A DNA stretch of 64,000 nucleotides from Bacteroidales bacterium (GTDB lineage Bacteria > Bacteroidota > Bacteroidia > Bacteroidales > UBA4181): positions 30,639 to 94,638 of the forward strand of contig JAISWE010000099.1 in NCBI GenBank assembly GCA_031271175.1, in the 5' to 3' direction. Position 1 is the first letter of the stretch; every line of letters begins with the position of its first letter. Below are positions 35,850-51,696 of the stretch, one piece after another. The notes below the pieces were generated by a model that did no database searches, was not told the DNA's origin, and saw only the letters and a list, made by a program, of their open reading frames with translations. Position numbers and translations under genes: made by a program.

Positions 35850-38800
35850 TTAGAATCCGATTCTTAATCCGATGTTATAGCGCCGCACAAGGGGATAAAG
35901 CGAAGCCGAATTGCTTTCCGGATCGATATATTTGTTGAAATTGGTAAATGTCAACAGATTGTTGGCGTTCACATAGATTTGACACTTGGACATGCCGACT
36001 TTACCGATAAGTCTTTGATTGAAAGTGTAGGCGACTTCCATGTTTTTCAGCCTGAGATAGGAAGCGTTCCGATAGTTGTAGGTCGTGCCGCGTTGATTGT
36101 ACTGGCTGCTCGCAGTGAGTGCATGAAGGGTTGGTTTTGAAGCTGTTAAAGCCGTTTCGGGCGTCCAGCGGTTCAGTACGTCCGGGTTGGCAAAATAGTT
36201 TTCCACCTGTCCGAAGCGCAAATCCCACAACAATTCATCCGCCACATTTTTGTAAACGCCCAGCACACCGTACCACATCATTGAAAAGTCGAAATTCTTC
36301 CACGAAAAACCCATAGACCATCCATAGGTGGTACGCGGATAATTCTGCTTTTCCATCGGCATGCGGTCGTTGAGGTCATCGTAGATGATGGTGCCGTCTG
36401 CATTGTAGTCGATATACATAAAGTCGCCGGGCAACAGTGTGGTTTGCTCAACTGCCGAGGCATAATTATAGATGTCGTCTAATGACCCGTAGTACCCGGC
36501 CACGCCCAGGCGGGTTTGATAATCGATGGGTTTGCCTGCCTTCCTGAGGTATTCTTCCATCATAAAGGGGTCGTTACGCTCAACGACACGGTTTTCATTG
36601 GTGGAGAAATTGACCTTGATCCAGTAACGGAAGTCATCGCTTGTTTGGGCATTCCAGCCGAGTTCTATTTCCAGCCCGTGCGTTTTTGTCTCTCCAAGAT
36701 TGGCCTGTGGATCCTTGAACCCAAACCAGGCGGGGGTTATCTGCGACATGATGATACCCTTCCTGTTTTCCTTGAAGAAGTCCGCATTTCCGGTAAGGCG
36801 GTTGTCGAACAGGCCGAAATCGACGCCGAGGTTTTGTTTGTAGGCCGTTTCCCAGGTGGCGTTCACGTTGGCCGTTCCGTCTTCAACGATGATCGGCCCG
36901 TAGCTGTTGGCAGTGGTCGAACCGAGTTGCAGGTTCGGACTGGTGCTGGCGAGTTTGTATTTCTGAACGTATTCGAAAAAATCGGCGTTCCGGTCAAAGC
37001 CTACAGTGCCGTACGAATAGCGTATTTTAAGATTGCTGAGCGCTTGGGAAACAACGCTGTTCTTGATAAAGGATTCTTCAGAGATTCGCCATGCCACCGA
37101 GTAGGAAGGGAAAAACTTGAAACGCCTGTCGCGTGCAAACCTCATGGAACCGGTATATGCGCCATTGAGTTCTAACAGGTAACGTTCCGCATAACCGTAG
37201 GTCACGCGGGTTACCCATGCTTCTTCACGCTCCTGGTATTTCATGTTTACGGTGGCGCCGTCCAGCAGTTTGTCGATCTGGTTGCGGTCGAATACACCCA
37301 GCGCGGTAACGGCGTGTTTGCCGAAGGTGCGGGCATAGTTAACGGATGCTTCATATTTAATCCTGCGTTCATAGCCTCCACCGGTGATGTTATCGTATGA
37401 AACTTCGGGTCTTTCGCCCTGCCAGTTGGCAGGATTGGTCGGGAAACGGATATTTTCGATCAGTTCGTATCCTCCATCCGGAAGCGGTTGGGTGTAGTCG
37501 TACTTGCGGTAATACCTGATGTTTGCCTCGCCAAACGAACCGGCGCCGAAATTGCTGCCCTTGGCCTTTTGTATGCGCGACTGGCTTTCGTTGGCGGTGG
37601 TGAAGGAAAATTTCGCCTGTGCACTAAGCCCTTGGGTAATAAAATTGAGGTTCTGTTTCAGTCCCAAATCGACAAAGTTCTGGTAGGATTTGAACATCCG
37701 CTGTCCATGGTCGAAACTTTCGCGAAGATTACTCATCCCGTCAATGGCAGCGCCATACTCGCCATCGCTGTAGCGTACCGGGAACAGGTGGCGCGGATCG
37801 TTGTACAGTTCCCTGAAAAAGCTTGCCTCGTAGCTTCCGTCGAGACGGTAACCGGGCTGGTTGCGGTTTCCCTGCTTGCCGGCAAGGTTAACCGAGAGAA
37901 CGGTCGACGTGGTGAGGTTGAAATCCAGGTTGGTGCGCCAGTTGTAACGCTTGAAGTTGTGTGTGGGATCGAATATTTCGTTTTTTTCGGTACGGTAAAT
38001 ATCTCCTTCATTCAGAAAGGCAAACGACACGAAATACTTCACAAAGTTGCTTCCACCGCGGACATTGAGATTGTACTGCTGCGAAAATCCCAAGGGTTTG
38101 ATCATCTCTTTCCACCAGTCCACTTCGGGGAAATAGTCGTTGTCGGGACCGTAGTTGCCCGTAGCGAAAGCGTTTTCCCAAGCGGCAATTGTCGATTCGG
38201 GAATCAGCATGTTCCACGCCCCATCGTTGGCGACGGCTTCGTTCCACATTTTCATGGAGGTGACATAGTCGGCATATTCGGGTTTCATGGTGGGCTGCTT
38301 GAAGCCGAAGTTGGCGCTGATGCTGATGGAAGGCCGTTGATTCAAACCGCGCTTGGTAGTGATGATGATCACGCCGTTACCGCCCTTGACGCCATAGACA
38401 GCGGTGGCGGCGGCATCCTTCAGCACCGATATCGATTCGATCTCGTTGGGATCAACGTCATTGAAATCGCGCTCTACGCCATCTACGAGACAGAGCGGAT
38501 CGGTATTGTGCCACGTTCCCTTGCCCCGTATAATCAGCTTGGCTGCATCGTCGCCCGGCTTGGATGTACTGGAAATGGCTACCACCCCCGGCATTAACCC
38601 CTGAATGGCCTGCGACACATTGGTCACCGCTCCTGTTTTCAACAAATCCTCTCCTTTTGCCTGCGCAACGGAACCGATCATGGTGGTTTTCTTTTGCACG
38701 CCGTAGCCCACTACCACCACTTCTTCCAATTCGGCCGTTGATTCGTTCAAAACGAAATCAATTACCGTACGGTCACCGACCACCTCTTCTACGGTGGTAT

Positions 38801-39071
38801 AACCGACAAAAGAAACGGTAAGCACCGGATCCTTCACATTCACCGGATGAATAACGTATTCTCCATTGATATTGCTAGTGGTTCCGAGAGAGGTTTCCTT
38901 GACCCAAATCGAAGCGCCCGGCAATGGAGAGCCGGAATCATCCATGACTCGACCTTTCACCGTACGGTCTTGAGCTGACATCGGTAAAACAAGCATTGCG
39001 CTCAGCAGCGCCGTCATTATTGCAGACAGTATCTTCCGTCCTGCAGAACAGATATAATATTTGTTGTTCAT
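35850..39071 (-). CDS. SusC/RagA family TonB-linked outer-membrane transporter (pair 3)
   Basis: The N-terminal ~120 aa are nearly identical to the SusC at 23172-26267 and the remainder is divergent. Ends in IGLRIGF. Its ATG overlaps the sulfatase stop (ATGA at 39068-39071). Confidence 0.92.
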   Translation of the reverse strand: MNNKYYICSAGRKILSAIMTALLSAMLVLPMSAQDRTVKGRVMDDSGSPLPGASIWVKETSLGTTSNINGEYVIHPVNVKDPVLTVSFVGYTTVEEVVGDRTVIDFVLNESTAELEEVVVVGYGVQKKTTMIGSVAQAKGEDLLKTGAVTNVSQAIQGLMPGVVAISSTSKPGDDAAKLIIRGKGTWHNTDPLCLVDGVERDFNDVDPNEIESISVLKDAAATAVYGVKGGNGVIIITTKRGLNQRPSISISANFGFKQPTMKPEYADYVTSMKMWNEAVANDGAWNMLIPESTIAAWENAFATGNYGPDNDYFPEVDWWKEMIKPLGFSQQYNLNVRGGSNFVKYFVSFAFLNEGDIYRTEKNEIFDPTHNFKRYNWRTNLDFNLTTSTVLSVNLAGKQGNRNQPGYRLDGSYEASFFRELYNDPRHLFPVRYSDGEYGAAIDGMSNLRESFDHGQRMFKSYQNFVDLGLKQNLNFITQGLSAQAKFSFTTANESQSRIQKAKGSNFGAGSFGEANIRYYRKYDYTQPLPDGGYELIENIRFPTNPANWQGERPEVSYDNITGGGYERRIKYEASVNYARTFGKHAVTALGVFDRNQIDKLLDGATVNMKYQEREEAWVTRVTYGYAERYLLELNGAYTGSMRFARDRRFKFFPSYSVAWRISEESFIKNSVVSQALSNLKIRYSYGTVGFDRNADFFEYVQKYKLASTSPNLQLGSTTANSYGPIIVEDGTANVNATWETAYKQNLGVDFGLFDNRLTGNADFFKENRKGIIMSQITPAWFGFKDPQANLGETKTHGLEIELGWNAQTSDDFRYWIKVNFSTNENRVVERNDPFMMEEYLRKAGKPIDYQTRLGVAGYYGSLDDIYNYASAVEQTTLLPGDFMYIDYNADGTIIYDDLNDRMPMEKQNYPRTTYGWSMGFSWKNFDFSMMWYGVLGVYKNVADELLWDLRFGQVENYFANPDVLNRWTPETALTASKPTLHALTASSQYNQRGTTYNYRNASYLRLKNMEVAYTFNQRLIGKVGMSKCQIYVNANNLLTFTNFNKYIDPESNSASLYPLVRRYNIGLRIGF
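38688..39043 (-). repeat. 356-bp tract 97.8% identical to 25884-26239
   Basis: See 25884-26239. The two copies are in direct orientation, 12.8 kb apart. Confidence 0.9.
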
Positions 39072-40558
39072 AAAATTATTTTTTCAAAGTCAAACGGAAA
39101 AGGTGCGGAATATTGATGTGCTTCCTGCATGATTTTCAGCATTTCCGCGACAATTTCCGGATGCTGTTCCGCTACATTATGTTGCTCACGGATGTCGTCG
39201 GAGAGGTCATACAGTTCGACAATCGTTTTTTGAGAATGATTGACATTCAGGCGGATCGCCTTCCATTCGGCTTTTCTCACCGCCATTTTTCCACCCTGTT
39301 CATGAAATTCCCAATAAAGGTATTCATGTTGTCGTTGTTTTTTCTTTCCGTACAATGTCGGAAGAAAAGATATGCCGTCCGTATTTTCCGGCGTTTTCGT
39401 TTTTGTCAGTTCGGCTAAAGTGGCCATCACATCCCAGAAAGCGGCGACATGTCGGTTCACGCTGCCTGCTTTTATTTTTGACGGATACCATGCGATGAAA
39501 GGCACCCGTATGCCACCTTCGTACAAATCGCGTTTTACGCCGCGTAGCGTACCGGAACTTTTAAAATAAGCGGGGTCGGCGCCGCCTTCAACGTGAGGCC
39601 CATTGTCACTGGTAAAGATGACAACCGTGTTCCTGTCTATTCCCAATTCTTTCAAAGTATGGCAAATATCCCCCACGTAAGCGTCCAATCGTGTCACCAT
39701 GGCAGCAAAATCGGTTTTGGGGTGCGATGTGCTTCCATAGGGGCCTTTCCGGAAAGAAGGGCCATTGTCCACTCCCTGATAAGGTTTTTCCGAAAATTTT
39801 CCGTCATACATGGCGAAAATGCTATCATCAGGATTGACCAATTCGGCGTGGGGAATCACATAAGTAAGATATGCGAAAAACGGTCTGTCTTTGTGGGTGC
39901 GGATGAAGCGGATGGCGTTTTCGTGTATCATATCTTGCGCATACTGTCCTGTGGCATTGCCTCTGTTGCCTTCCAACCACACGGTATCCTGGTTGCTCCA
40001 CAGGTAGTAGGGGTAGTAATGGTGAGCCAGCGCCTGACTGTTGTACCCGAAAAAGCTATCGAACCCTTGTTGATGCGGAGCGCCTTCCGTTGATGGGGCG
40101 CCCAATCCCCATTTGCCGAAACACCCTGTTGCATAGCCATTGTATTTCAGCATTTTACTGATAGTATATGTTCCTTCCGGGTGAGGATAATCGCCGCCAC
40201 GGAAATGTTTATTGCCGCGAACGGGAGTATGTCCGGTGTGCAAGCCGGTAATCAGCGAAGAACGGGAAGGAGCGCTGACCGTGCAACCGGCATAAAATTG
40301 AGTGAATTTCATTCCTTCGGCTGCCAAACGGTCGATATTCGGCGTTTTGATTATTTCCTGTCCGTAACAGCCCAAGTCTCCATAACCCAAATCATCCGCC
40401 ATAATGAAGATGATGTTGGGGCTTTCAGCATGGTTGGGCTGGCACGCTCTGGCTACCACGGGACATATTACGGTGATTACTATCGCGCGACAGATACCCT
40501 TTGCGGTGATGTCCGAAAGCGGGACGATCCTACTTATATTTCTTACCCTTACTTTCAT
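39068..40558 (-). CDS. sulfatase (arylsulfatase / N-acetylgalactosamine-6-sulfatase-like), Ser-type active-site motif, chimeric 5' end
   Basis: IIFIMADDLGYGDLGCYG, GCTVSAPSRSSLITG (S-x-P-x-R with Ser at the formylglycine position), GKWGLG and FTSDNGP. The first ~30 codons derive from repeat module R (40461-40558). Confidence 0.88.
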   Translation of the reverse strand: MKVRVRNISRIVPLSDITAKGICRAIVITVICPVVARACQPNHAESPNIIFIMADDLGYGDLGCYGQEIIKTPNIDRLAAEGMKFTQFYAGCTVSAPSRSSLITGLHTGHTPVRGNKHFRGGDYPHPEGTYTISKMLKYNGYATGCFGKWGLGAPSTEGAPHQQGFDSFFGYNSQALAHHYYPYYLWSNQDTVWLEGNRGNATGQYAQDMIHENAIRFIRTHKDRPFFAYLTYVIPHAELVNPDDSIFAMYDGKFSEKPYQGVDNGPSFRKGPYGSTSHPKTDFAAMVTRLDAYVGDICHTLKELGIDRNTVVIFTSDNGPHVEGGADPAYFKSSGTLRGVKRDLYEGGIRVPFIAWYPSKIKAGSVNRHVAAFWDVMATLAELTKTKTPENTDGISFLPTLYGKKKQRQHEYLYWEFHEQGGKMAVRKAEWKAIRLNVNHSQKTIVELYDLSDDIREQHNVAEQHPEIVAEMLKIMQEAHQYSAPFPFDFEKIIL

Positions 40559-40852
40559 AAAACTCTAATTTTCACTAACAAAAGCACATTCACTTATTCA
40601 TTGGTTGATGCGTGCTGAAACGATTTTTCAACGGCAAAAATAAATACTGTTTTTTTATTTTGCAATAAAAAATTCATAAAAATTATTAAATTTTGATAAT
40701 TATTTTATAATTATTTGAAACTCAGTATATATATTGTATTAAATTTTTTGCTTGAATGGATGAGATGAGTGAAATTTTGCAGTTAAAAAAGACGGGGCAA
40801 CAGAAAGTCATTGGGAGTTCCGACAGATTTTATTTATTATCATGTTAATACA
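40461..40852 (-). repeat. repeat module R, copy 1 (AT-rich promoter-like region, leader, ATG and ~32 codons)
   Basis: About 390 bp align by eye at roughly 85-90% identity with 51198-51582 in the same orientation. The module includes the sulfatase start codon at 40556-40558. Confidence 0.85.
40635..40642 (-). promoter_or_regulatory. candidate -7 box (TAnnTTTG, minus strand) inside R copy 1
   Basis: Plus-strand caaaaata is TATTTTTG on the minus strand, about 77 nt upstream of the sulfatase ATG. R copy 2 has TATCTTTG at the equivalent position. Confidence 0.35.
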
Positions 40853-40929
40853 TAATGATATTACCATCTTAAAAATCGATTTTTCGCCATGGCGGGAGAA
40901 AACTTCATATCCAATTGCAGGCAATATCC

Positions 40930-41585
40930 TCATTTCGTGTTCAACAGGCGTTTCAATGCTGCAATTTGTTTGGCCTGTGCTTCAAGCACTCTGTCTTTTT
41001 CTTCAAGCGCTTTCTCTTGTCCTTCGATAATACGCTTCTGCTTCCTTTTCTATCTCCTCGCGCTCCTTCGGGTCGGCTACCATCTCATTCAGCACGGAGG
41101 CGATAAAACGGATGTCTTCATCATCCGACCTGTAGATGTACTGTTTGCTCACTTCCGAATCTTCCTCAATGAAATGAGCCTGCTCAAAAAGACTCAGCAG
41201 TTCGTTCAGCTTTGTACCGTAACGCCCGGTGGCAATCCTGCCTGCCTGAATAACATAGCTGTCATGGGTGAGCTTCTCCACAAACGGAGACTTTGATGCA
41301 ATCGAACCTTTGTTTATCATGTCCCGATAATGCCGCTCCACCTTAATGCAGGGGCTTTCTATGCCGGCAAGCCTGCCGCCCAAAATATAAATCGTCGTTA
41401 TGGGGAAGCACAATGTCCTCGCCGTTGATCCTGTCCACTCTCCGGTACTGCTCGGCAAGGTAGTTGCGAAACCGTTTCACGTCCGTTTCATCCCACGATT
41501 TCTGCACTTCTATCAAAATCTTTTTCCACTCGCCAGCTTTCGTTTCAATAGTAGCCATAAAGTCGATCCGAAATATGGAATAGCC
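40930..41585 (-). pseudogene. decayed PD-(D/E)XK nuclease family transposase (PDDEXK_2 / Rpn-like): 5'-truncated with at least 2 frameshifts
   Basis: Three frames together read YSIFRIDFMATIETKAGEWKKILIEVQKS...FRNYLAEQYRRVDRINGEDIVLP | ITTIYILGGRLAGIESPCIKVERHYRDMIN...FVEKLTHDSYVIQ...LLSLFEQ | KRIIEGQEKALEEKDRVLEAQAKQIAALKRLLNTK*. One frameshift is at a G4/C4 run (41402-41405). The N-terminal ~80-100 aa are absent. Confidence 0.75.
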
Positions 41586-41588
41586 GAT

Positions 41589-41782
41589 CTTCGGCTGCCA
41601 AACGGTCGATATTCGGCGTTTTGATGATTTCCTGTCCGTAAACAGCCCAAGTCTCCATAACCCAAATCATCCGCCATAATGAAGATGATGTTGGGACTTT
41701 CAGCATGGTTGGGCTGGCACGCTCTGGCTGCCACGGGACAGATACCGGCAAACAAAACCGGCGATATTTTAAAACTTTTCAT
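41589..41782 (-). pseudogene. orphan 5' fragment of a sulfatase gene (duplicate of 40305-40455), frameshifted and truncated
   Basis: MKSFKISPVLFAGICPVAARACQPNHAESPNIIFIMADDLGYGDLGC, then out of frame. 152 bp match the intact sulfatase with 3 substitutions and a 1-nt insertion. Its ATG overlaps the GH43 stop (ATGA at 41779-41782). Confidence 0.8.
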
Positions 41783-43287
41783 TGATTAAAAATTGGTGCT
41801 TCTGCTTGTGATGAAGGAGTATTACCTGTGATGGAAGGCCAGCCGTCGGATGACCAGATGATTTTATCCAGCATCAACCGTCTTTCGTTCGGAGCAACTA
41901 CTATGTCGTACGCATGATACAGTATCCAGTCGTTACCGGCGTCGTCGGTCACTATTTCGGCGTTATGCCCCGGCCCGGCAAACGCACTGTTACCCTGAAT
42001 GACAATTACGTATGCGTTATCTAACATACGGTTGCCGTTTTTGACTTCATAGGGGCCGAAAAGATTCGTCGATCGTCCGACGACCGTTCTATAATTGCTG
42101 CTGGCGTTGTTACAACACGACCCCCATGAGCAAAACAGATAATAGTAATTACCGCGGCGGTAAATGTAGGACGCCTCAAAAGCAGTTCCTGCAATTTGTA
42201 CCGGCATGTCCGCACCCTCCTTTATCGACAGGCCGTCATCCGCAAGTTCAACGATATAGATGCCTCGAAAACTGCCGAATGTCATGTACTTTTTGCCGCC
42301 GTCTTCGATATAGAACGGGTCAATGCAATGTTTTACATTGATTCGCGGGTCGTTGCCGACAATCAGGCAGCCTTGATCCGTGAAGGGGCCTTCCGGCGTG
42401 GGGGCAGTAACGGCAAGGATGCTGCTTTGCCATTCAAGATCGCCTTCCCCTACATTTCTGCAACAATAAAGCACATACTGCCCGTTGATGTAGTTGATGT
42501 CGGGCGCCCAGAGAGACCCGCTCGCACATGCGGGGCGCGTACTGTTGGTAAAAACGGTTCCCCGCTGTTCCCAGTTCACCAGATTGCGGGACCGCATAAT
42601 GGGAATATGGGGGATCGCTTCCGTGGCATAGAGGTAAAACCAGCCGTCATCGGTTCTTATCACGGTAGGGTCGGGCAGCCGTTGCGTTGTTACCGGATTC
42701 TGATAGGTATTGGATACCGTTACCGGCACGCTTTTGCTGGTTCCGTTGCCGGTACGTCCACTGACCGTAATATGTGCGCTGCCTGTCTGCAATCCTTTTA
42801 CCCGTCCGTTGACAACGGACGCCACGGCGGCGTTGTCCGTTGCCCAGAGGAAAGGTTTCTCCGCCATACCTGCGTTCGCCGGCGACGAGGTGGCGTGTAA
42901 CAGGGCGCTGTCGCCAACCAGTAAGTTGAGCCTGTCCGGCGTAACGTTAATGGTCAATGGGGTAACGGATATTTTTGCCGACGCTTCAATATCTCCGCTT
43001 TTTATTTGAACGGAAGTAGCGCCGTTGTCGATAGCAGTTACCAGACCGTCGTCCGTTACGGTAGCAATGCTCGTATGAACGACCGACCATGTGAAATGGA
43101 CATTGTCCGCATCGGCAGGAACAGGATTTGCTGTTAGCCGAACGGTATCTCCCGGAACGAGTAACGCCGAGGCGGGAGATACGGTGATCGACTCCAACAG
43201 CGCTCTGCTCGACGATTCGTTCTTGCAAGCCGGGAAAATACAGCTTGCAAGTAACACAGCGCTGATGATTTGATGGATGGTTTTCAT
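41779..43287 (-). CDS. Big_2 domains plus glycoside hydrolase family 43 lipoprotein
   Basis: Lipobox IFPACKNE. Two Big_2-like repeats. YQNPVTTQRLPDPTVIRTDDGWFYLYATE, WAPDINYINGQYVLY and FEASYIY..YYYLF are GH43 five-bladed propeller motifs. Confidence 0.85.
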   Translation of the reverse strand: MKTIHQIISAVLLASCIFPACKNESSSRALLESITVSPASALLVPGDTVRLTANPVPADADNVHFTWSVVHTSIATVTDDGLVTAIDNGATSVQIKSGDIEASAKISVTPLTINVTPDRLNLLVGDSALLHATSSPANAGMAEKPFLWATDNAAVASVVNGRVKGLQTGSAHITVSGRTGNGTSKSVPVTVSNTYQNPVTTQRLPDPTVIRTDDGWFYLYATEAIPHIPIMRSRNLVNWEQRGTVFTNSTRPACASGSLWAPDINYINGQYVLYCCRNVGEGDLEWQSSILAVTAPTPEGPFTDQGCLIVGNDPRINVKHCIDPFYIEDGGKKYMTFGSFRGIYIVELADDGLSIKEGADMPVQIAGTAFEASYIYRRGNYYYLFCSWGSCCNNASSNYRTVVGRSTNLFGPYEVKNGNRMLDNAYVIVIQGNSAFAGPGHNAEIVTDDAGNDWILYHAYDIVVAPNERRLMLDKIIWSSDGWPSITGNTPSSQAEAPIFNQ

Positions 43288-43304
43288 AATTACTTCTTAA
43301 GCGC

Positions 43305-44297
43305 TCAATTTTCCAGCCTTTTCAATGTTTCCTGTACGGTGATCCAATTGTCGTATGTGCTGGGCGGCGTTTTCAATGTCCGGTAACGATAGCGCAGATA
43401 GAAATATTTGGTGACGGTTTCGTCCACCATGTTATTTCGCGCCTCTTCGTAGGTATTCCATTGATCGCCGTTGATTTGCTCCACCTGAATGGTGCCGCAC
43501 GGAGCGATGCTTACCGAATCGTTTTCGTCCACCGTCAGCACAATGCCGTATTTGTCTAATTCATCCGTCGAAGGTCTGGCAAGCACGGGGTCTATCCCGA
43601 AATCCGCTTTAACGGGCCCCATCCCGGCAAAGATGCGTACCGCATTTTTACTGATCGGGCGCGCCAGCTTGGTGCCTGAGATGGCGCCGCCGACGACTGC
43701 TTCCATTGCTGCGTCCAGCGTATTGCCTCTCATGGAGTAATAAGTGGTCGTTTTCAGTTCGGCAAACCGGTTTTCCAGCAACACCCGGAAAAGCATGTTG
43801 TACTTTTCCGGATTGACCTCATATCTGGACACATTTTTAATGGCCAGCGGAATGAAATAGGTAGAATCGGGCGACAGCCCGTCCAGATAGATGATGACAG
43901 GCACTTTTACATACTGGTCTTTGTTGTTGGCAGGTATCACTACCCGCATCGGGTCAATGCGATACCGGCTTTCGGGCAGCAGAAGCGCAAATTTGGAAGT
44001 GTCGATATCGAAGTTGGCGCGGTTGTAGGTACTCATCAGCACCGTATCGGCTTCCAGTTCAACGGTGGTTTCTTCCGGATTGGCCAGCGATCCGCCGCAT
44101 CCTACCGAAAAATAACCTTCTACCTCGTTCCCGTCGTCAAAGGGATAGACGTCGGAATACACGTTGTAGTCTTCCTTGCTGAGCAAGTAAACCACGTATT
44201 TATAGTACTCCTTGGAGGAAAAATCTTCCTCCTTGCAGGATGCGAACACTATCGCTATCACACCCGTCATGATCGTATTTAAGATATATCTTTTCAT
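43305..44297 (-). CDS. DUF4973/DUF4361-like PUL accessory lipoprotein
   Basis: Lipobox IVFASCKEEDF. YYKYVVYLLSKEDYNVY...LLPESRYRI pattern. Sits directly downstream of a SusD gene. Confidence 0.65.
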   Translation of the reverse strand: MKRYILNTIMTGVIAIVFASCKEEDFSSKEYYKYVVYLLSKEDYNVYSDVYPFDDGNEVEGYFSVGCGGSLANPEETTVELEADTVLMSTYNRANFDIDTSKFALLLPESRYRIDPMRVVIPANNKDQYVKVPVIIYLDGLSPDSTYFIPLAIKNVSRYEVNPEKYNMLFRVLLENRFAELKTTTYYSMRGNTLDAAMEAVVGGAISGTKLARPISKNAVRIFAGMGPVKADFGIDPVLARPSTDELDKYGIVLTVDENDSVSIAPCGTIQVEQINGDQWNTYEEARNNMVDETVTKYFYLRYRYRTLKTPPSTYDNWITVQETLKRLEN

Positions 44298-44332
44298 TTT
44301 ATTCTTTTGTTATATTATTTAGATGAAAGTTA

Positions 44333-46348
44333 TTAATTTTCCCAGCCCGGGTTTTGGTCAAGCGTAGGCGCCTTGCGCAGTTCCGAAAGCATAATGGGCA
44401 TAAAAACGAATTTGCGGTTGACCACCCTTCTGCGCGCTTTGGAATGGTTCAGCGGAACGCGCGTGTAATAGGAGTCGCCCGACATCTCGGTATCCATGCC
44501 CATCATCAGTTCGTTTTCGCTATCTACATATTTACCCCAGCGGCGAACGTCGAAAAAGCGCCGGTTTTCACACATAAATTCCAACATGCGTTCGCGTTCT
44601 ATCAGCGCCTGCATGGTCGATGCGGAATTAAGCTCTTCGGGGGTCAACCCCGGCAGCCCCGCCCGGTAGCGCACCATGTCGAAGTACTTTTTCATTTCGG
44701 CGACATCCCGCGTGAAGGTGTGTTCGTTTCCATCCACATCCGTCAGGGTATATGGATTTTCCAGGTTGTTCAGCGCTTCCACGTACGAAAGCAGTATCTC
44801 CGCATAGCGGATAATCGGGAAAGGCTTGTCCAGCACACTTGTTCCCGCCGCTGTTCCCACCCCTGCCCATGCGTCTTCGGGATGGATATATTTGCGCAGG
44901 ATATAACCGGTAATCGGATAAGAGTTAACATCGTCGGTAACGCCGGCTTTTCCTCCCAGTCCGCTGTAATCGTAAAACATCTGCTTATCCCTGTAGGCGG
45001 CATCGGTGGCAGAAGAGGCCGTCCACCATGTTCCGCTGAAAGCGACGCTGGCATAGAAACGCATTTCGCGATTGATGTACATATTGTGGACATTCGGCCC
45101 CAGTTGATAGCCGGAAAAATTGCGGTTGCCGGAAAGGTATCCCGTTTCGTCGTATTCGCCGGCAGTTTTGGCTTCTTCTATGGTCTTGCCGTTTTCCATA
45201 TAATAAGCATCTACTATTTTCTGAGTGACGCACAGGTTGTTGTAGCCGCGGAAATAGGTGACGGGAAAGGAACGCTGGGTAAAATTTTTGACCGACGCGG
45301 AGTTGCACGCCCATAGGAATTCGGGATTACGGGAAGCCACCGTTTCACCGTTGAACATTTCTTGATAGGAACGATAAGCGTCGATATTTCCGGCCCCGTT
45401 GGGAAAGTTGTCATTTGGTACGTTCGACGGGAGCGTCCGCGTATCTGAGGTCCGGTCAACGGTATGCAGGCTGTAAATTCCCCATTCGATGATCCGTTTG
45501 GCTGCTTGCGCCGCCAGCGCCCAGCGCCGTTCGTCGTATTCCTGCCGGATGTAGTGTACGTTGTCCGACGATCGGACGAACTCGCCGAAGTAGATGCGCG
45601 CCGCATTCCCTTCCTTTCCGCCGCCGTTGAACAGCGGGCTGGCATGTTGCAGGCGCAGGCGGGCAATCAGGCCCAGCGCCGCTCCGCGGGTAGGCCTGCC
45701 GAAAAAGTTGACGGCCACTTCGGAAGGCAGATAATCCGCCGCTTTCTCCAAATCTGCGCAAATCGCATCTATACACTCATCGTAGGTGTTGCGGTAACGG
45801 GCGTAATATTCCGTTTCTTCGTTATTTTCCAGCACCTCGTCACCCAAAAGCACCACAGGACCGTAGAGGTTCAACAGGTTGTAATAGGCATAAGCCCTGA
45901 GAAAATAAGTGTATCCCATGATTTCCCTTCTGTCGATGGAAGTCAGGTCTGTCGCTTCATTCATGCGGGCAAAGATGGTATTGGCTTTGCGGATCACGCG
46001 GTACATCTTGTCGTAGATATTGATGCCGTGTGCATCGCTGGCCGTTACTTCGCCCAGCACCAAGTTCAATCCGTTGTAGGCGCCGCCCAGCGAAAAGGCC
46101 TCGTCGGTAGCCATGATGCCGGGGGTATACACCGTATTGCCAAAGATCTGTCCTTCGTCGTCGAAAGCGTCGGCGGCGCCGAAGAGATATTTTTGCAGGT
46201 TCAACTTGTTATGAAAAATGGAATCGTATTGGAGCGTTTCATTGAAATAATCGTCCACATCCAGGAAATTGCAGGAGTGAAACGCGAGAAACAGCAGCAA
46301 GGCGACGGTTCCGGCGCCGGTCGTAATATATTCATTTATCTTTTTCAT
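44333..46348 (-). CDS. SusD/RagB family lipoprotein (pair 4)
   Basis: Lipobox LAFHSCNFLDVDDY. FDVRRW...FMPIMLSELRKAPTLDQNPGW. Confidence 0.9.
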   Translation of the reverse strand: MKKINEYITTGAGTVALLLFLAFHSCNFLDVDDYFNETLQYDSIFHNKLNLQKYLFGAADAFDDEGQIFGNTVYTPGIMATDEAFSLGGAYNGLNLVLGEVTASDAHGINIYDKMYRVIRKANTIFARMNEATDLTSIDRREIMGYTYFLRAYAYYNLLNLYGPVVLLGDEVLENNEETEYYARYRNTYDECIDAICADLEKAADYLPSEVAVNFFGRPTRGAALGLIARLRLQHASPLFNGGGKEGNAARIYFGEFVRSSDNVHYIRQEYDERRWALAAQAAKRIIEWGIYSLHTVDRTSDTRTLPSNVPNDNFPNGAGNIDAYRSYQEMFNGETVASRNPEFLWACNSASVKNFTQRSFPVTYFRGYNNLCVTQKIVDAYYMENGKTIEEAKTAGEYDETGYLSGNRNFSGYQLGPNVHNMYINREMRFYASVAFSGTWWTASSATDAAYRDKQMFYDYSGLGGKAGVTDDVNSYPITGYILRKYIHPEDAWAGVGTAAGTSVLDKPFPIIRYAEILLSYVEALNNLENPYTLTDVDGNEHTFTRDVAEMKKYFDMVRYRAGLPGLTPEELNSASTMQALIERERMLEFMCENRRFFDVRRWGKYVDSENELMMGMDTEMSGDSYYTRVPLNHSKARRRVVNRKFVFMPIMLSELRKAPTLDQNPGWEN

Positions 46349-46373
46349 GTTTACGTTATTTTTAAGATGTTTG

Positions 46374-49300
46374 TTAAAAATGCAAATAAATCTGGAAAGT
46401 CACGCGCAGGGGGATGGGATAGGAACGGCCGTTGTACTGCGCCTGTTCCGGATCGTAGATACCGATACTGTCCCACACATAGAGATTGTTGCCCACCAGT
46501 TGAAAATCCAGCGAAGTGACGCCCACCTTTCGGAAAAAATCCGGTTTCCATTTATAGTTGACGGATATTTCCTGCAGGCGCAGGAATTTTTTGTTTCCCT
46601 GCCAGAAATCGGATAATTGCGCATTGTTGGCATTATTGCCGTAGGTGAGGCGCGGGAAACGGGCGTTGGGATTTTCGGTGGCTTTGTCTCCCGACCAGGA
46701 CTCCGGCGTCCACCGGTTCGCCTGTTCGGCAACAAGGCTTTGCACGTTCCCCAGTTCTCCGTTATGGAAAGGCACGTAGCCCATGCCATTGGTGTAAGTA
46801 ACACTAAATTGAGTAACGCTTTGTCCTACATAGTAAAAATTATTGTCTCCCGTGCCTTTGAACAGGAATCCTACCGTAAGGTTTTTCCACTGGTATTCGC
46901 CGCCAAACCCGTACATCAGCCGCGGATAGGTAGGATAGGAAAGGACTACGCGATCGTCGGTATTGATTTGTCCGTCGCCGTTTACATCCTTGTATTTGAT
47001 GTCGCCCGGCAACACTTCGGAGGTAAACGTTTGTTGAGGACTGCTTTCCACATCCTGTTCGTCTCGGAACAATCCCATCGAGCGATAGCCCCTGATCGCA
47101 TTGAGGGGATAGCCGTTCCGGTTTTGGTAGTCGTATTTCTGGGCTGCCTGTTCGTAATTTTCCACCTTGTTGGTAGAGTAGGTATAATTGGCGCGGAGGG
47201 TAAATTGCATGTCCTTGCTGACGGGATAGGTATAGGAGATATTTCCGTCCGACCCGTAACTTTTCATTTTGCCCACATTGCCGTAGGGCATCGCGACAAG
47301 TCCCACGTATCCGGGAATAGTGGCGCGTTGCTGGAAAATGCCGTTGCGGCGGTCTATGAAGAAATCCACGGTCAGGCTCAGGTTATCTTTCAGGAAACGA
47401 CTGTCCAGCCCGATATTGGATTTGACGGCGCTTTCCCACACCAGATTGTCCGCCCCTATGCTGTTTTCGGTAATGCCGCCTTCGGTATATCTCCACCCTG
47501 CGGAAGAACTGGCGTTCACGATGGTCAGATAGGGGAAACGGGTGCTGGATATTTTGTCGTTACCGACGGTTCCGTATGATCCGCGTATTTTGAAGAAAGT
47601 GACCCACGGGAGCGTCGTTTTCACCCATTCGTACTGCGACGGCACCCATCCCATTGCTATGGAAGGGAAGAATCCGAAACGTTCTCCTTCCCGGAAATTT
47701 TCCGAACCGGTGTAGCCGAAGTTGAAATCCAGCAAATAGGTATCCTGATATCCGTAGGTCAGCCGGCCGGACAGTCCCTGGTAGCGTTTCGGAATGGCTT
47801 TCATGCTCATGCCGATGCCGCCCGAAGAGATGTCGTTGGTATCTTTCGAATCGCTCATGTAATAATAGGCCAGGAAAGAGAAACGGTGCTTTTCGGCAAA
47901 CACCTTGTCGTAATTCAACGTCGATTCGAGGTGATATTTGCGGAATTGCCGCTGTGAAAAGCTATAACCGGCCGGCGTAGCGCTAACTCTTTTAACTATT
48001 TGCAGTTCTCCGTCCACTCCTCTGGTAGAGGCATAATACAGGTCGGGCAATACATACCGGCGTTCGGAAAAATAGCTCTTCGTATCAAAAGCGCCCTGTA
48101 TCCGTATTTTCAATCCCTTGAGCAGCATCGACAGGTCCTGGTTCAAGTTGATGGTGGTTTTGAAGGTATTGGTATTCTCCGATGCGCTCCCAGTGTAGTT
48201 CATCAGCACGTAGGGGGAAATATTGTCGTTGCCTGTCCCGTAGGTGGGGATTTGTCCTGTGGAATATTTCAGCGGCACCTGCATGGGATTCATGGACGAC
48301 AGGGAGAACCATAGATAGTCGGTATTGAGGATGCCCGGCTGGGTTTTGCGCGTCAGGTAGCCGTCGGTGCTGAAGAAGATTTTGGTGGTTTCCGTCAGCT
48401 TGATGTCTAAGTTGGTGCGGTACGAATAGGTATTGTAACCTGTTTTGGCATTAAATTCGCTGTTGGGGTCCACCTTGTAGGCGGCGCTTTCGTCGGACAG
48501 TCCCAGGCTCAGGAAGTATTTCGCCACGCTTCCGCCTCCCTGCCCGCTCAGGTAATAGGTCTGTTGCAGGCTGACGGGCTGGATGATTTCCTTTTGCCAG
48601 TCCACATCCGGGAAGAGGTCTTTGTCTAATCCGTAACGGATCACGTCCATTTGCCCCTCCGAATACCTGGGCTGGTCGCCCCTGACGACCAGCGCTTCGT
48701 TGACCAGCGAGGCATACTGGTAAGCATTGACATATTCGGGCATTCGTTGCAGTTGGGCAAGGGTATAGTTGGCGCGGGCAGAGAGTTTCAATTTGCCTTC
48801 TTCGCCGCGTTTGGTGGTGACCAATACGACACCGTTGGCGCCTCTCACGCCATACACCGCTGTGGCGGAAGCGTCCTTCAGAATGGAAAAGCTTTCGATG
48901 TCGGCGGGGTCGATGGAATTAAGATCGCCTTCCAGCCCGTCAATCAGCACCAGCGCCGAGGCGTTGGCGCCAAAGGTGCCGATGCCCCTGATCCAGAATT
49001 CGGAAATGTTCTTGCCCGGTTCGCCGCTGGTCTGCATGGTGATCACTCCCGCCATGCGGCCTCCGAGAATGTTGGCCATGGAGGTGGCCGGCACTTGCAG
49101 TTCCTTCGTATCAATGGTGGTCACGGCGCCTACCGCAGTGATTTTGCGGCGGGCGGTTCCCAGCGCTTCTACTACTACTTCTTCCATCTGGGTGGCGGAT
49201 ACTTTCAACCTGATTTTCAGATCCGTTTCATTTTTCGATACGGGATATTGCAGGTTTTCATAACCGACAAAGGAGAAGACGATGATGTCGTTTTCGGCTG

Positions 49301-49493
49301 CCCTGATGGAAAAGACGCCATTGATGTCGGTGGACGTCCCCAAGCCTGTCCTGTCTTTCAAATAAACGGTAACGCCCGGCATGGTTTCGTCGTTCTCGTC
49401 ATAGACGACGCCGGACACGGTAAGGTTGCGCTGCGCGACAATCGGCGCTGCGAAAACCATTAACAATATAATGGTATGGAATAATTTTTTCAT
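46374..49493 (-). CDS. SusC/RagA family TonB-linked outer-membrane transporter (pair 4)
   Basis: I chose the start at MKKLFHTIILLMVFAAPIVAQ. Carboxypeptidase-like domain (VSGVVYDENDETMPGVTVYLKD), plug and barrel ending in VTFQIYLHF. It starts 5 nt after the upstream stop. Confidence 0.92.
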   Translation of the reverse strand: MKKLFHTIILLMVFAAPIVAQRNLTVSGVVYDENDETMPGVTVYLKDRTGLGTSTDINGVFSIRAAENDIIVFSFVGYENLQYPVSKNETDLKIRLKVSATQMEEVVVEALGTARRKITAVGAVTTIDTKELQVPATSMANILGGRMAGVITMQTSGEPGKNISEFWIRGIGTFGANASALVLIDGLEGDLNSIDPADIESFSILKDASATAVYGVRGANGVVLVTTKRGEEGKLKLSARANYTLAQLQRMPEYVNAYQYASLVNEALVVRGDQPRYSEGQMDVIRYGLDKDLFPDVDWQKEIIQPVSLQQTYYLSGQGGGSVAKYFLSLGLSDESAAYKVDPNSEFNAKTGYNTYSYRTNLDIKLTETTKIFFSTDGYLTRKTQPGILNTDYLWFSLSSMNPMQVPLKYSTGQIPTYGTGNDNISPYVLMNYTGSASENTNTFKTTINLNQDLSMLLKGLKIRIQGAFDTKSYFSERRYVLPDLYYASTRGVDGELQIVKRVSATPAGYSFSQRQFRKYHLESTLNYDKVFAEKHRFSFLAYYYMSDSKDTNDISSGGIGMSMKAIPKRYQGLSGRLTYGYQDTYLLDFNFGYTGSENFREGERFGFFPSIAMGWVPSQYEWVKTTLPWVTFFKIRGSYGTVGNDKISSTRFPYLTIVNASSSAGWRYTEGGITENSIGADNLVWESAVKSNIGLDSRFLKDNLSLTVDFFIDRRNGIFQQRATIPGYVGLVAMPYGNVGKMKSYGSDGNISYTYPVSKDMQFTLRANYTYSTNKVENYEQAAQKYDYQNRNGYPLNAIRGYRSMGLFRDEQDVESSPQQTFTSEVLPGDIKYKDVNGDGQINTDDRVVLSYPTYPRLMYGFGGEYQWKNLTVGFLFKGTGDNNFYYVGQSVTQFSVTYTNGMGYVPFHNGELGNVQSLVAEQANRWTPESWSGDKATENPNARFPRLTYGNNANNAQLSDFWQGNKKFLRLQEISVNYKWKPDFFRKVGVTSLDFQLVGNNLYVWDSIGIYDPEQAQYNGRSYPIPLRVTFQIYLHF

Positions 49494-49498
49494 TGGGA

Positions 49499-50884
49499 TC
49501 ATTGTATAGTTAATTTGCGAATACATTTGTTGCCGCGGTCGGCGATATAGATAGTGCCGTCACGCCTGTCTATGGCCAGCCCCCAGGGAGCGTTGAACAT
49601 GGCGTCGTCCGGATTGCCATCCCGAAGATCGGCTTTGCCGGCAATGCCTACGATGGTTGTTACTATGCCTTCGGGGGATATCTGCCGGATACAATGGTTT
49701 CCCTGTTCGGCAATGACCAGATTGCCTTCGTTATCCAACACCATTTGCCGAGGCTGCCTGAACAGCGCCTCTTCCCTGCCACCGTCCTTCCATCCCGCTT
49801 CTCCCGATTTTCCCGCATATACGCCGGTTTCGCCCGTCAGTACGTCAAAATAATGAATACAGTGCTGACTGGTGCTGGCGCAGTACATCCTGGACTTGTT
49901 CACCGGATCGAAGACAAGGTAGGTGTCGCTATTGAGCGGATTACACTGGTCTTTCAAACCGTCTCCATCCACATCCATTGATTCGCCTATGCGCGTTTTC
50001 GGATTGAACCTGATCAGGTAACCGTCGCGGTTGGAACGGAAATAAATCATGCCGTCCAAGCTGCATATCGCAAATGAGTGCTTAAACTGGTTGACGGTAA
50101 AGTCCAGCATACCAGAGGCAATATCATTTGCGGTGGGATGCAGTACTTTTCTGGTTCGCGGCGCCCACTGGAGTTCAGGGTCGAATTCGAAATACGTGTC
50201 GAGATAAGTACTGCCTCCGTCCGCCGGAACAAGAATGACTTTTCCCTCCATATCCGTGCTTGGCGCATTGGGTTTGTTGGGACATGCAAACAGCTGCGTC
50301 ACCGTGCGGTTTTGCTGGTCGATCAGCAGTACTGCGGACGTGGATTCGTGGGCAAGGAACAAATTCCCTTCGTTGTCTATCGTCAGGTAATTGGGATTGT
50401 TAAAGGTGGCTTCACCGAAAGAACCGGTTTTGAGAGCGGTTGTTCCCTTTTGCCCGACAATGGTTTCCACTAATCTGTTGGTATGGTACACATATTTTTG
50501 GCTAAAGACACTGGAGTCGTTGCCTATTACCAATGAAATCACGCAGGTGTCTCCGGGCTGTCGCGGCGTAATCGCCAGCACCCTTCCGTTACTGCATCCT
50601 ACCACAGGAGCGGCTTTGTGGTTGAAATATACTTTAACGGCTTTGGGATCGTTACCCAGGTTTTCGCCTTTCAGAATTACCTGCGTGGCCATTCCTCCTT
50701 CAACAGGCGTGAAGGACTCTCGCAGGACAGCCTGTCCCGGATCGTAGGACGGCGTATTGTCGGTTTTGGAACTTGTCGATTCTTCGCATGAAATGAGATA
50801 GAACAGACAGAAAGCACACATCAAGCGGCTTCCCTTGCTTAGTATTGCTTTTTTTACTTTTTTTTGAAATCTAATTCGGTTCAT
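49499..50884 (-). CDS. IPT/TIG domain plus NHL-repeat beta-propeller lipoprotein (first gene of this PUL)
   Basis: Lipobox FYLISCEE. FTPVEGGMATQVILKGENLGNDPKAVKVYFN (IPT/TIG). NHL-type repeats such as LVIAEQGNHCIRQISPEG and IYIADRGNKCIRKLT. Confidence 0.8.
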   Translation of the reverse strand: MNRIRFQKKVKKAILSKGSRLMCAFCLFYLISCEESTSSKTDNTPSYDPGQAVLRESFTPVEGGMATQVILKGENLGNDPKAVKVYFNHKAAPVVGCSNGRVLAITPRQPGDTCVISLVIGNDSSVFSQKYVYHTNRLVETIVGQKGTTALKTGSFGEATFNNPNYLTIDNEGNLFLAHESTSAVLLIDQQNRTVTQLFACPNKPNAPSTDMEGKVILVPADGGSTYLDTYFEFDPELQWAPRTRKVLHPTANDIASGMLDFTVNQFKHSFAICSLDGMIYFRSNRDGYLIRFNPKTRIGESMDVDGDGLKDQCNPLNSDTYLVFDPVNKSRMYCASTSQHCIHYFDVLTGETGVYAGKSGEAGWKDGGREEALFRQPRQMVLDNEGNLVIAEQGNHCIRQISPEGIVTTIVGIAGKADLRDGNPDDAMFNAPWGLAIDRRDGTIYIADRGNKCIRKLTIQ

Positions 50885-51137
50885 ATTACTTATATTTATT
50901 AGGTTACATATTTATTGATTTACTTATATTTATTGATTATAAAAATTATCACATGATTATACGATTATATCTTTTTCTCTTTTCTCTTTTTCTCGAGCGC
51001 AGTCAAATTTTTCGTCTGAAACGATATTTTTCCGCCTTTTGTCGCATTTCGTCATGAAGGTAAACATGGAATATGCGGCAGTTGAACGGAAAGGCCTCGC
51101 CGAAAGGAAACTCCCTTTTATTCTTTATTGTTTTTTC

Positions 51138-51175
51138 TCCTCCTCCCGTATCCTTACATGGATACGGGAGGAGGA
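51138..51175. other. perfect 16-bp GC-rich hairpin in the PUL leader
   Basis: tcctcctcccgtatcc-ttacat-ggatacgggaggagga. T6 lies directly 5' on the plus strand and there is no U-tract on the minus (operon) strand. The loop holds the ATG-TAA end of the R-derived mini-ORF. Confidence 0.85.
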
Positions 51176-51285
51176 AACAAGCTATACTTACCCTTTGCGG
51201 TGATTACTACCACGCGAAAAGTACCCTTTGCGGTGATGTCCGAAAGTGAGACAATCCTACTTATATTTCTTACCCTTACTTTCAT
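51154..51285 (-). other. 43-codon mini-ORF started by the R-module ATG (coding status doubtful)
   Basis: MKVRVRNISRIVSLSDITAKGTFRVVVITAKGKYSLFPPPVSM*. Its first ~21 codons are homologous to the N-terminus of the chimeric sulfatase. Confidence 0.2.
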
Positions 51286-51582
51286 AAAACTCTAATTTTC
51301 ATTAACAAAAGCACATTTACTTATTCATTGCTTGCTGCTTGCTGAAACGATTTTTCAACGACAAAGATAAATACTATTTTTTTATTTTGCAAGAAAAAAT
51401 TCATAAAAATTCTTAAATTTTGAGAGTTATTTTATAACTATTTGAAAATCAATGTATATCTTGCATAAAAATTTTTGCTTGACTGGATGAGATGCGTGAA
51501 ATCTTGCAGCTGAAAAAGACGGGGCCACAGAAAGCCACCGAGAGCGCCGATAGGTTTCATTTATTATTATGGTAATATATCA
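51198..51582 (-). repeat. repeat module R, copy 2 (upstream of the IPT/NHL-SusC PUL)
   Basis: Aligns with 40461-40852. It lies 314-698 nt upstream of the 50884 start codon. Confidence 0.85.
51362..51369 (-). promoter_or_regulatory. candidate -7 box (TAnnTTTG, minus strand) inside R copy 2
   Basis: Plus-strand caaagata is TATCTTTG on the minus strand, at the same position as the box in R copy 1. Confidence 0.35.
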
Positions 51583-51617
51583 GTAGTGTCTGCCCGAAAA
51601 CAATCACATCGTCAAGC

Positions 51618-51666: not shown

Positions 51667-51696
51667 CGAGCAATCACGGGCACTGTCTAACACGCT

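Follow-up and report, generated by a model that had tools for sequence, protein, structure and literature searches.

The window (the whole 64,000-nt stretch of DNA analyzed here) comes from a metagenome-assembled contig of an uncultured gut Bacteroidales bacterium and contains adjoining SusC-like and SusD-like genes together with genes for glycan-active enzymes, GH43 and sulfatase, as in a PUL; gene families were assigned by Pfam on the orthologues from L125, L126 and L131. At the locus under study (Table 1), a GH43 gene, whose product is identical to a database entry from a MAG contig (P0121), is followed by an orphan ORF, the remnant of an Rpn-like gene, a module designated R1, an intact sulfatase ORF and a SusC gene.

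Table 1. Features of the GH43-sulfatase-SusC region and of the second R copy (positions in the window).
Feature	Position	Strand	Remarks
Downstream SusC 5′ tract	38688..39043	(-)	356 nt, 97.75% identical to paralogue at 25884-26239
Chimeric intact Ser-type sulfatase ORF	39068..40558	(-)	496 aa from ATG in R1; Pfam PF00884, PF16347
Copy A of duplication	40315..40468	(-)	blastn, repeat search and base-by-base comparison; within intact sulfatase ORF
R1, putative promoter/leader module copy	40468..40853	(-)	386 nt, 27% GC, contains ATG at 40558
Spacer, Rpn-like stop codon to R1	40854..40929	(-)	76 nt; no homology among fetched sequences
Rpn-like (divergent PD-(D/E)XK) pseudogene	40930..41588	(-)	without about 74 N-terminal codons, frame-disrupted
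Orphan ORF	41513..41782	(-)	89 codons: native sulfatase start and signal peptide, frameshift, junk into Rpn-like remnant
Copy B of duplication	41589..41743	(-)	155 nt, corresponds to sulfatase nt about 40-194; extra A at 41640-41642
GH43 gene	41779..43287	(-)	502 aa, Big_2 + Glyco_hydro_43; Pfam PF04616 at 1.6e-66
R2, second R copy	51195..51580	(-)	upstream of IPT/NHL-SusC-SusD-BT_3044-like-GH43 genes of neighbouring PUL

The sulfatase matches PF00884 (7.3e-57) and PF16347 (2.1e-17) with full domain coverage and an intact body, which includes the maturation motif (C/S)-x-P-x-R of S1 formylglycine-dependent sulfatases in the form SAPSR. Its nearest homologue in a protein search shows 72–73% protein identity, and the best match in a metagenome scan 70%, in a context that is not shared. 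This body is joined in frame to the ATG within R1, and the resulting chimeric N-terminus may still work as a signal peptide. The JGI call of the same gene (P0241) has 463 aa from an internal GTG at 40459 and no signal peptide, which is a lesson for annotation. The stop codon overlaps the start of the next SusC gene as ATGA (39068–39071); therefore, the sulfatase is not the last gene of an IPT/NHL-SusC-SusD-DUF-GH43 operon, as the original prediction held, but lies within a longer co-oriented string.

The GH43 stop and the orphan ORF start likewise share an ATGA (41779–41782), as predicted and as the ORF coordinates show. The frame of the orphan ORF reads MKSFKISPVLFAGICPVAARACQPNHAESPNIIFIMADDLGYGDLGC and then exits the sulfatase frame at an extra base. 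Its N-terminus matches in length and character the signal peptides of seven sulfatase homologues, from which the R-derived N-terminus differs, and the export signal expected of an S1 sulfatase is thus found in the native N-terminus on copy B. These comparisons support the view that the native sulfatase start sits on the upstream fragment.

Blastn against the window aligned copies A and B as a direct repeat of 155 columns with 96.8% identity and a single gap (E about 1e-67), and a repeat search of the window returned them as two ungapped blocks with a 1-nt offset. Base-by-base comparison located substitutions at 40352/41626 (T/G), 40421/41696 (G/A) and 40455/41730 (A/G), and a fourth one, at 40466/41741, adjoining the junction; the indel is an AAA in copy B, the upstream one (41640–41642), against AA in copy A (40366–40367), and the longest exact match spans 55 nt. 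The original prediction of direct copies with three substitutions and a 1-nt insertion that frameshifts the upstream copy thus holds, with one more substitution at the junction; of its two bounds, 41589 was exact, but 40305 was wrong by 10 nt, since the repeat begins at 40315 and positions 40305–40314 are unrepeated.

In the two closest relatives (L001 and L125, with 88–90% nucleotide identity) the GH43 gene leads directly into SusC; sulfatase, Rpn gene and R are all absent. Both are collinear with the window on either side and lack its positions 41773–38688; the downstream edge of this missing block is the SusC 5′ tract of Table 1. In a third relative, L126, non-coding DNA follows GH43. An uninterrupted GH43-ATGA-sulfatase junction, which had been proposed as a check in relatives, was therefore seen in none of the three. 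The 3% divergence between copies A and B is well below the roughly 10–11% that separates the window from L001 and L125. Other recent recombination in the cluster is apparent from the SusC 5′ tract, nearly identical to a paralogue, from a mosaic GH43 and from differing gene content beyond the Big_2 gene. From these comparisons, the insertion is a scar specific to this lineage, in a PUL cluster that is prone to recombination.

The R module and the Rpn-like remnant

R1 and R2 align without gaps and are 87.8% identical. Read from the sequence, R1 contains a putative promoter with a −33 TTG (40665–40663) and a −7 box, TATTTTTG (40642–40635), which is of the Bacteroidetes type and in the sense orientation; this agrees with the promoter-like module that had been predicted ahead of the sulfatase, and R1 may be an active promoter. 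The strict Bacteroides pattern TTTG-N17-23-TAnnTTTG is not matched in R, where the −33 element reads TTG instead of TTTG, and a scan for sigma-70-type promoters, a model unsuited to Bacteroidetes, gave chance-level matches only. Rfam matches on 39000–52500 were also at chance level, and the RNA structure of the R1 leader is not unusual (z = +0.8). No further R copies were found in the fetched loci L001–L130 by low-stringency blastn with R1 and R2 as queries, or in IMG/VR in two exact-core scans. We discarded a conserved peptide encoded by the leader ORF, since in it R1 and R2 differ by about five amino-acid changes against a single synonymous one, as well as the possibility that R is a piece of an Rpn-like unit: homology to three intact Rpn-like genes ends at their stop codon, with nothing R-like beyond.

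The DNA homology of the remnant to these three intact genes begins at about codon 74 of the latter (nt about 220) and ends with their stop codon, at window position 40930. Its reading frame is broken by a +1 within the C/G run 41402–41405, which reads CTTCCCCATAACG where the frame needs CTTCCCATAACG, and again at about 41032, where roughly 50 nt are deleted out of frame; the 5′-truncated, multiply frameshifted gene of the original prediction was thereby recovered, C/G run included. Cut at codon about 74, the remnant lacks an equivalent of D11 of RpnA, and the RpnA D11A mutant is inactive. Furthermore, its C-terminal frame has no start codon after the last stop; in rpn genes, an internal start yields a small C-terminal antitoxin, RpnS (PMC10400941). 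By its sequence, the Rpn-like gene is evidently a broken passenger, and dead.

Neither Pfam (PF12784 and PF04754 included, both at E ≤ 10) nor NCBIfam matched the remnant. Of 83 full-length homologues, 81 likewise escape these models; of the other two, one matches PF04754, at an E of 1.5e-5 that is above the cut-off, and one PF12784 (E 0.0028). A remote kinship was suggested by a profile comparison: hhalign of the family alignment (A2) against a bona fide PDDEXK_2 reference (L130:2853-3713, PF12784 at E 1.8e-35) gave a probability of 62.9% (E 7.1e-5, 111 columns) and paired the N-terminal DxxFK motif and the ExQ strand. In the family, D82, E100-x-Q102 and R112 are invariant and D22 nearly so, with a spacing like that of D11, D63, E82-x-Q84 and R94 of RpnA; the window remnant retains the D, ExQ and R, the first D having been lost through truncation. 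An AlphaFold model (pLDDT 81) shows an alpha-beta-beta-beta-alpha-beta order around the motif residues. Foldseek against PDB returned nothing for the family at E ≤ 0.001, and searches of PHROGs, PADLOC and PDB sequences were uninformative. The PDDEXK_2 assignment made earlier thus fails as an HMM match, but a remote relationship of the family to Rpn/PDDEXK_2, seen by profile comparison and catalytic motif only, appears to stand.

The family is large, with 2320 matches in the protein database and several paralogues per relative MAG, often at contig ends. As with Rpn/YhgA-like nucleases (PF04754 Transposase_31; PF12784 PDDEXK_2; COG5464), the remnant's full-length homologues have about 300–350 aa with a predicted N-terminal alpha-beta-beta-beta-alpha-beta core and a C-terminal helical tail of short repeats in variable number, and their genes are, like rpn genes, solitary and multi-copy, in varied contexts and without terminal repeats. 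They differ in that the tail repeats have roughly seven residues (KALEEKD-like), compared to four in E. coli RpnS, and in their invisibility to Pfam and NCBIfam, and the window copy in being a dead fragment.

Origin of the insert

The homologies to the intact sulfatase copy and to the intact Rpn-like genes stop at the same base (J1, 41588|41589), whereas those to copy B and to R2 stop within about 6 nt of each other (J2, about 40466–40473), where CCG is shared and mismatches cluster. This supports an insert of roughly 1.12 kb between two illegitimate junctions, with 155 bp of the sulfatase 5′ region duplicated at its edges. The insert is not bordered by inverted repeats and contains no intact transposase ORF; the duplication, with 155 bp, is not of the transposase type and, as was originally argued, is too long for a target-site duplication.

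We consider the most probable explanation, with a probability of about 0.6, to be a single templated insertion with target duplication, produced by template switching (MMBIR/FoSTeS-like); both the single event and the process are deduced from the structure of the locus. Template switching is favored as the simplest process that would account for two junctions of the microhomology type and, at the same time, for a long duplication of the target. Because the closest relatives have no sulfatase here, the starting state is itself a reconstruction, in which the sulfatase would have stood between GH43 and SusC, ATGA-coupled to both. Synthesis would have proceeded to sulfatase nt 194 and then jumped (J1), at Rpn codon about 75, into a donor locus in which 76 nt separated an Rpn-like nuclease gene from the R-type promoter module downstream of it; about 1.12 kb would have been copied through R before a return jump to sulfatase nt 40 (J2). 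Entry at nt about 194 and exit at nt about 40 would leave sulfatase nt 40–194 flanking the insert at either end. A dead-end ORF of 89 codons, coupled to GH43 and later hit by its +1 frameshift, would thus have kept the native start and signal peptide, and the enzymatic body would have been fused in frame to the R-leader ATG, about 70 nt downstream of the Bacteroidetes-type promoter. In this way a second promoter may have been gained for the sulfatase and for the SusC/SusD pairs that follow it. The original prediction had the sulfatase uncoupled from the GH43 operon; translational coupling is indeed lost, but the parts are co-oriented with no convincing terminator between them, so that read-through from the GH43 operon is possible. 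Neither the donor locus nor a pre-insertion allele was found among the sequences searched and, given also the distance to the nearest sulfatase, the order and number of events are inferred from one sequence. R2 was rejected as the donor, since R1 and R2 have diverged by 12% compared to 3% for copies A and B and R2 is not preceded by an Rpn-like gene; a tandem duplication of the R2-to-sulfatase segment followed by deletion was rejected on the same grounds, R1/R2 divergence being four times that of A/B.

Alternatively, tandem near-identical sulfatases (GH43-sulfatase_1 ... Rpn-like gene-R-sulfatase_2-SusC) could have suffered separate deletions, one joining sulfatase_1 nt 194 to Rpn codon 75 (J1) and the other the R leader to sulfatase_2 nt 40 (J2). 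The cluster is demonstrably prone to paralogue duplication and conversion, and relatives have several sulfatases in the same PUL cluster; however, tandem sulfatases occur at this site in no relative examined, and a prior duplication plus two independent deletions leaving overlapping parts of the same 5′ region would be required, which makes this course of events unlikely.

The original prediction suggested Rpn-type recombination activity; on this view, a nuclease that promotes recombination would have caused the break behind the insertion or supplied the primer for the template switch. RpnA overproduction increases RecA-independent recombination, and the 3′-OH cleavage products of RpnA can prime template switching (PMC5350276); in addition, the remnant's numerous family keeps the Rpn catalytic pattern. 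Nevertheless, the sole link is a passenger gene fragment, itself cut by J1 and inactive since the insertion, a break is not attributable to an enzyme from sequence alone, and Rpn proteins are now regarded as toxin-antitoxin antiphage nucleases and not as transposases (PMC10400941). Nothing at the locus implicates Rpn, and we hold its involvement to be quite improbable.

Campbell-type integration, in which a circular DNA bearing a 155-bp piece of the sulfatase along with R and the Rpn fragment would have entered by one homologous crossover in the sulfatase 5′ region, is very improbable. A direct duplication exactly flanking an insert, as found here, is the classical signature of single-crossover integration, and the 155-bp repeat is long enough for RecA-dependent recombination. 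Such a circle, however, must already hold both illegitimate junctions, which merely shifts the problem back, and according to its ORFs and Pfam the insert has no replication, integration or mobilization function.

Finally, an assembly chimera of two strains, with one junction each and joined through a common Rpn-R segment to give an artefactual duplication, is very unlikely in spite of the origin of the contig in a metagenome-assembled genome and of the multi-copy Rpn-like genes often found at contig ends, because copies A and B share at most 55 consecutive identical bases, which rules out collapse or bridging by long k-mers, and an odd rearrangement of these 155 nt would still have to be assumed separately for each strain.

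Relation to known systems and implications

MMBIR/FoSTeS-type templated insertions have been documented mostly in eukaryotes and E. coli. The insertion described here resembles them in having a foreign templated segment with a flanking target duplication and two breakpoints with few shared bases (CCG at J2), and differs in that the process is deduced from its product alone. In Bacteroides, outward promoters borne on IS elements are captured by, and activate, cfiA or erm genes. The insert similarly brings a sense-oriented −7 box of the TAnnTTTG type to the front of a string of genes; unlike those elements, it has no transposase, inverted repeats or short target-site duplication, and it falls within a coding region and makes a fusion protein. 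The locus also fits the mosaic evolution of PULs, with co-oriented SusC/SusD pairs accompanied by GH43, sulfatase, BT_3044/BT_3987-like and Big_2 genes, and with relatives that are 85–90% identical yet unlike in gene content; in this respect there is nothing unusual here, and it is a further example with an unusually legible scar.

A bolder reading, in which we place very little confidence, is that R is a portable promoter/leader cassette copied between PULs with neighbouring DNA by nuclease-primed template switching, the breaks being supplied by the abundant Rpn-like family. If this were true, the insertion could be reversed through the 155-bp repeat: RecA-mediated crossover within the roughly 100 nt located 5′ of the frameshift would give precise excision and restore the GH43-coupled native sulfatase, and a population could toggle the sulfatase and the SusC/SusD pairs downstream of it between two states of expression.

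The rearrangement scar is real and fairly ordinary, and not a new kind of element; the current understanding of PULs and Rpn proteins is unchanged by it. There is, in addition, a large family in Bacteroidales that looks Rpn-like and is yet invisible to current Pfam and NCBIfam models. The locus offers a clean natural case of the rewiring of a PUL gene string, in which a gene was split, apparently in one illegitimate event, its signal peptide stranded and its N-terminus rebuilt in frame from a leader, and in which R1 may provide an additional promoter midway along a long operon.

Junctions of the insert and the chimeric sulfatase

A search within the window revealed a direct repeat of 155 columns, with 96.8% identity and one gap (E ~1e-67), formed by copy A (40315–40468), inside the intact sulfatase ORF, and copy B (41589–41743), which lies upstream and carries the native start. 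The original prediction had placed these direct copies at 40305–40455 and 41589–41740; the copies exist, although the left end was set 10 nt too low. The three substitutions described within that range were found at 40352, 40421 and 40455, together with a fourth at 40466, adjoining a junction; two of the changes are synonymous and one alters a signal-peptide residue (V/A). Likewise, copy B contains the described 1-nt insertion (an extra A, 41640–41642 versus 40366–40367) and thus leaves the sulfatase frame, and the ATG of the orphan ORF does overlap the GH43 stop as ATGA (41779–41782).

The homologies to the intact sulfatase copy and to intact genes resembling the Rpn nuclease family stop at the same base at the first junction, J1 (41588|41589), and those to copy B and to R2, one of two copies (R1 and R2) of a promoter/leader-like module R, both stop at the second, J2 (~40466–40473), with a CCG common to both. 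J2 falls within the second of two ATCACCGCAAAGGGTA repeats present in R2. Because the homologies on either side end together at each junction, J1 and J2 are both genuine breakpoints.

Features around the insert; the minus strand carries every gene in this part of the window
Feature	Position	Strand	Assigned by	Remarks
R2	51580 to 51195	minus		first in 5′ to 3′ order
Leader with perfect hairpin	~310 nt, after R2	minus
IPT/NHL protein	50884..49499	minus	Pfam
SusC	49526..46374	minus	Pfam
SusD	46348..44333	minus	Pfam
BT_3987/BT_3044-like protein	44297..43305	minus	Pfam
GH43	43287..41779	minus	Pfam
Orphan ORF	41782..41513	minus		89 codons
Rpn-like gene remnant	41588..40930	minus
Spacer	between Rpn-like remnant and R1	minus		76 nt
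R1	40853 to 40468	minus
Sulfatase	40558..39068	minus	Pfam
SusC_a	39071..35850	minus	Pfam	then more SusD/SusC/SusD genes

The native N-terminus of the sulfatase, MKSFKISPVLFAGICPVAARA, is carried by copy B and resembles the signal peptides of seven homologues in both length and character. The intact sulfatase body starts at an ATG derived from R (40558), reading MKVRVRNISRIVPLSDITAKGICRAIVITVICPVVARA..., and export of the chimeric protein may survive, because the fusion is in frame and adds a hydrophobic stretch. The fusion looks fortuitous, since in R2 the same ATG opens a 42-codon ORF whose peptide sequence is not conserved. The JGI gene caller places the start at a GTG (40459), giving a 463-aa sulfatase without signal peptide; the Pfam domains of the sulfatase are complete. 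Its stop overlaps the start of SusC_a, the gene that follows (ATGA, 39068–39071), and therefore before the insertion the sulfatase was internal to a long gene string, rather than closing the upstream operon as originally predicted.

Module R and the origin of the insert

R1 and R2 align over 386 nt without gaps, with 87.8% identity (R1 has a GC content of 27%). Conservation peaks (~95%) over a TTG-N20-TA(TT/TC)TTTG motif, which we take to fit the Bacteroidetes -33/-7 promoter consensus, and the ~150 nt after it. Since the stricter TTTG form of the promoter has no match in R, we can only infer from the sequence that R is an active promoter. Directly downstream of the R2 homology there is a perfect 17–18-bp GC-rich hairpin (51126–51186), absent from R1. 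This hairpin is the dominant structure in the folded R2 leader (z = -4.85), and neither strand shows a U-tract; a ~225-nt RNA from the R promoter could end here, or the hairpin could be an attenuator. Just upstream of R2, a 49-nt element occurs in two copies (94%; 51618–51666 and 51697–51745) and holds the hairpin GTCCCGCAGGGAC; a similar sequence is found in locus L017, from a Prevotellaceae MAG, and Rfam returned for this element only a sub-threshold match to Acido-Lenti-1. Elsewhere in the window, units repeating every 40/41 nt, with ~90–94% identity to one another, form a tandem array (9480–10212) that is flanked by a 56-nt direct repeat (96%; 9328–9383 and 10399–10454).

The simplest source of the insert would be a single template-switching event in replication or repair, which would account for both breakpoints, for the foreign templated segment and for the 155-bp target duplication. 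Alternatives are two deletions in a tandem arrangement, integration of a circular DNA through a single crossover, and an assembly chimera. Copies A and B share no exact match longer than 55 nt, which argues against a k-mer collapse artefact. R2 was discarded as the donor of R1, because the two are 12% diverged, versus 3% for copies A and B, and no Rpn-like gene precedes R2. Hence, at least one further R copy adjoining an Rpn-like gene must exist or have existed; further copies were absent from every one of the retrieved loci L001–L130, and from IMG/VR.

The Rpn-like remnant and its family

The conceptual translation of the remnant retrieved 2320 homologues, most of them "hypothetical proteins" of 300–350 aa from Bacteroidales MAGs. 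Alignment to the best homologues (80–84% identity) showed that ~75 N-terminal residues are missing, and DNA homology to three intact genes runs from their nt ~220 to their stop codon. The predicted 5′ truncation and multiple frameshifts of a transposase gene are thus borne out as lesions: there is a +1 at the C/G homopolymer singled out beforehand (41402–41405) and a ~50-nt out-of-frame deletion near 41032. The Rpn-like gene in the window is dead.

The HMM check proposed with the original prediction failed, and membership of PDDEXK_2 is not shown: Pfam and NCBIfam gave no match to the remnant; among 83 full-length homologues, one matched PF04754 and one, weakly, PF12784. "Rpn-like" is nevertheless defensible at the superfamily level. 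With hhalign, the family profile aligned to a bona fide PDDEXK_2 protein (probability 63%, E 7e-5) over the N-terminal DxxFK motif and the ExQ strand. Residues D82, E100-x-Q102 and R112 are invariant and D22 nearly so, with a spacing matching D11, D63, E82, Q84 and R94 of RpnA, residues whose mutation abolishes activity. At the C-terminus, the proteins have a helical tail in which the number of repeats varies, and their genes are solitary and multi-copy. Together, these features make a remote Rpn relationship likely; Foldseek and PDB sequence searches were uninformative. Of three MAG contigs inspected, two have the intact homologue within 160–230 nt of a contig end (L128, 6001–7056; L129, 6001–6993), consistent with a multi-copy family breaking assemblies.

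The published view of Rpn proteins has shifted from transposase to toxin-antitoxin antiphage nuclease (PMC10400941), and ends made by RpnA can prime template switching (PMC5350276). A role of the Rpn-like gene in making the insertion is conjecture, since the gene here is a truncated passenger.

Relatives and the mosaic cluster

Database entries from a 105,748-nt contig labelled "MAG: Bacteroidales bacterium" match the GH43 and sulfatase proteins of the window with 100% identity; the names of related MAGs (e.g., Candidatus Symbiothrix) suggest a termite-gut origin. Two related loci show 87–90% nucleotide identity to window positions 38732 downwards and to 43339–41774 (L001, MAG Gx481_bin90) or 43339–41765 (L125). 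In them GH43 is followed by ~560 nt and 70 nt, respectively, and then SusC_a, with no sulfatase, Rpn-like gene or R at this site; in L126 (78%, SusD through GH43) non-coding DNA follows GH43. The uninterrupted GH43-ATGA-sulfatase junction, proposed as a check in relatives, was seen in none of the three, and the sulfatase at this site is lineage-specific. The 3% divergence between copies A and B, versus ~10–11% to the nearest relatives, places the insertion after the split from them.

The window-specific block spans from ~41773 to 38688. At its downstream end, a 356-nt 5′ tract of SusC_a (38688–39043) is 97.75% identical to its paralogue SusC_b (25884–26239), and SusC_a is orthologous to L001/L125 only beyond it. 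This tract looks like a recent gene conversion; outside it, the two paralogues have no detectable DNA similarity. After a Big_2 gene, locus L131 (5656–11494) carries a sulfatase, a BNR/Por_Secre_tail (BNR/T9SS) protein and another sulfatase, whereas in the window (14686–26363) SusC_b and SusD come next, then two further genes and the BNR orthologue, and no sulfatase is present. The block, the tract and the differing gene content after Big_2 indicate that the PUL cluster is a mosaic. GH43 (41774–43339) is also a mosaic: its catalytic part (41774–42971) is 87–89% identical to L001/L125 and its Big_2 N-terminal part only 76–77%, with a one-domain offset, the protein having 502 aa versus 583–590 aa in relatives.

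Window positions 41765–41782 read CAA TGA where the relatives have CAT TGA (L125, 3956–3973), the sulfatase ATG is one base off the last codon plus stop of their GH43, and weak similarity extends ~14 nt into the sulfatase ORF. The native sulfatase start may itself have been co-opted from intergenic sequence at this site, chance being possible in such an AT-rich region.

Overall, the rearrangement originally predicted is real, but its operon history, family assignment and enzymology need correction. The insert is a well-delimited rearrangement scar and does not represent a novel class of element; it neatly illustrates how illegitimate recombination can rewire PULs, and points to an Rpn-like family without a current model.
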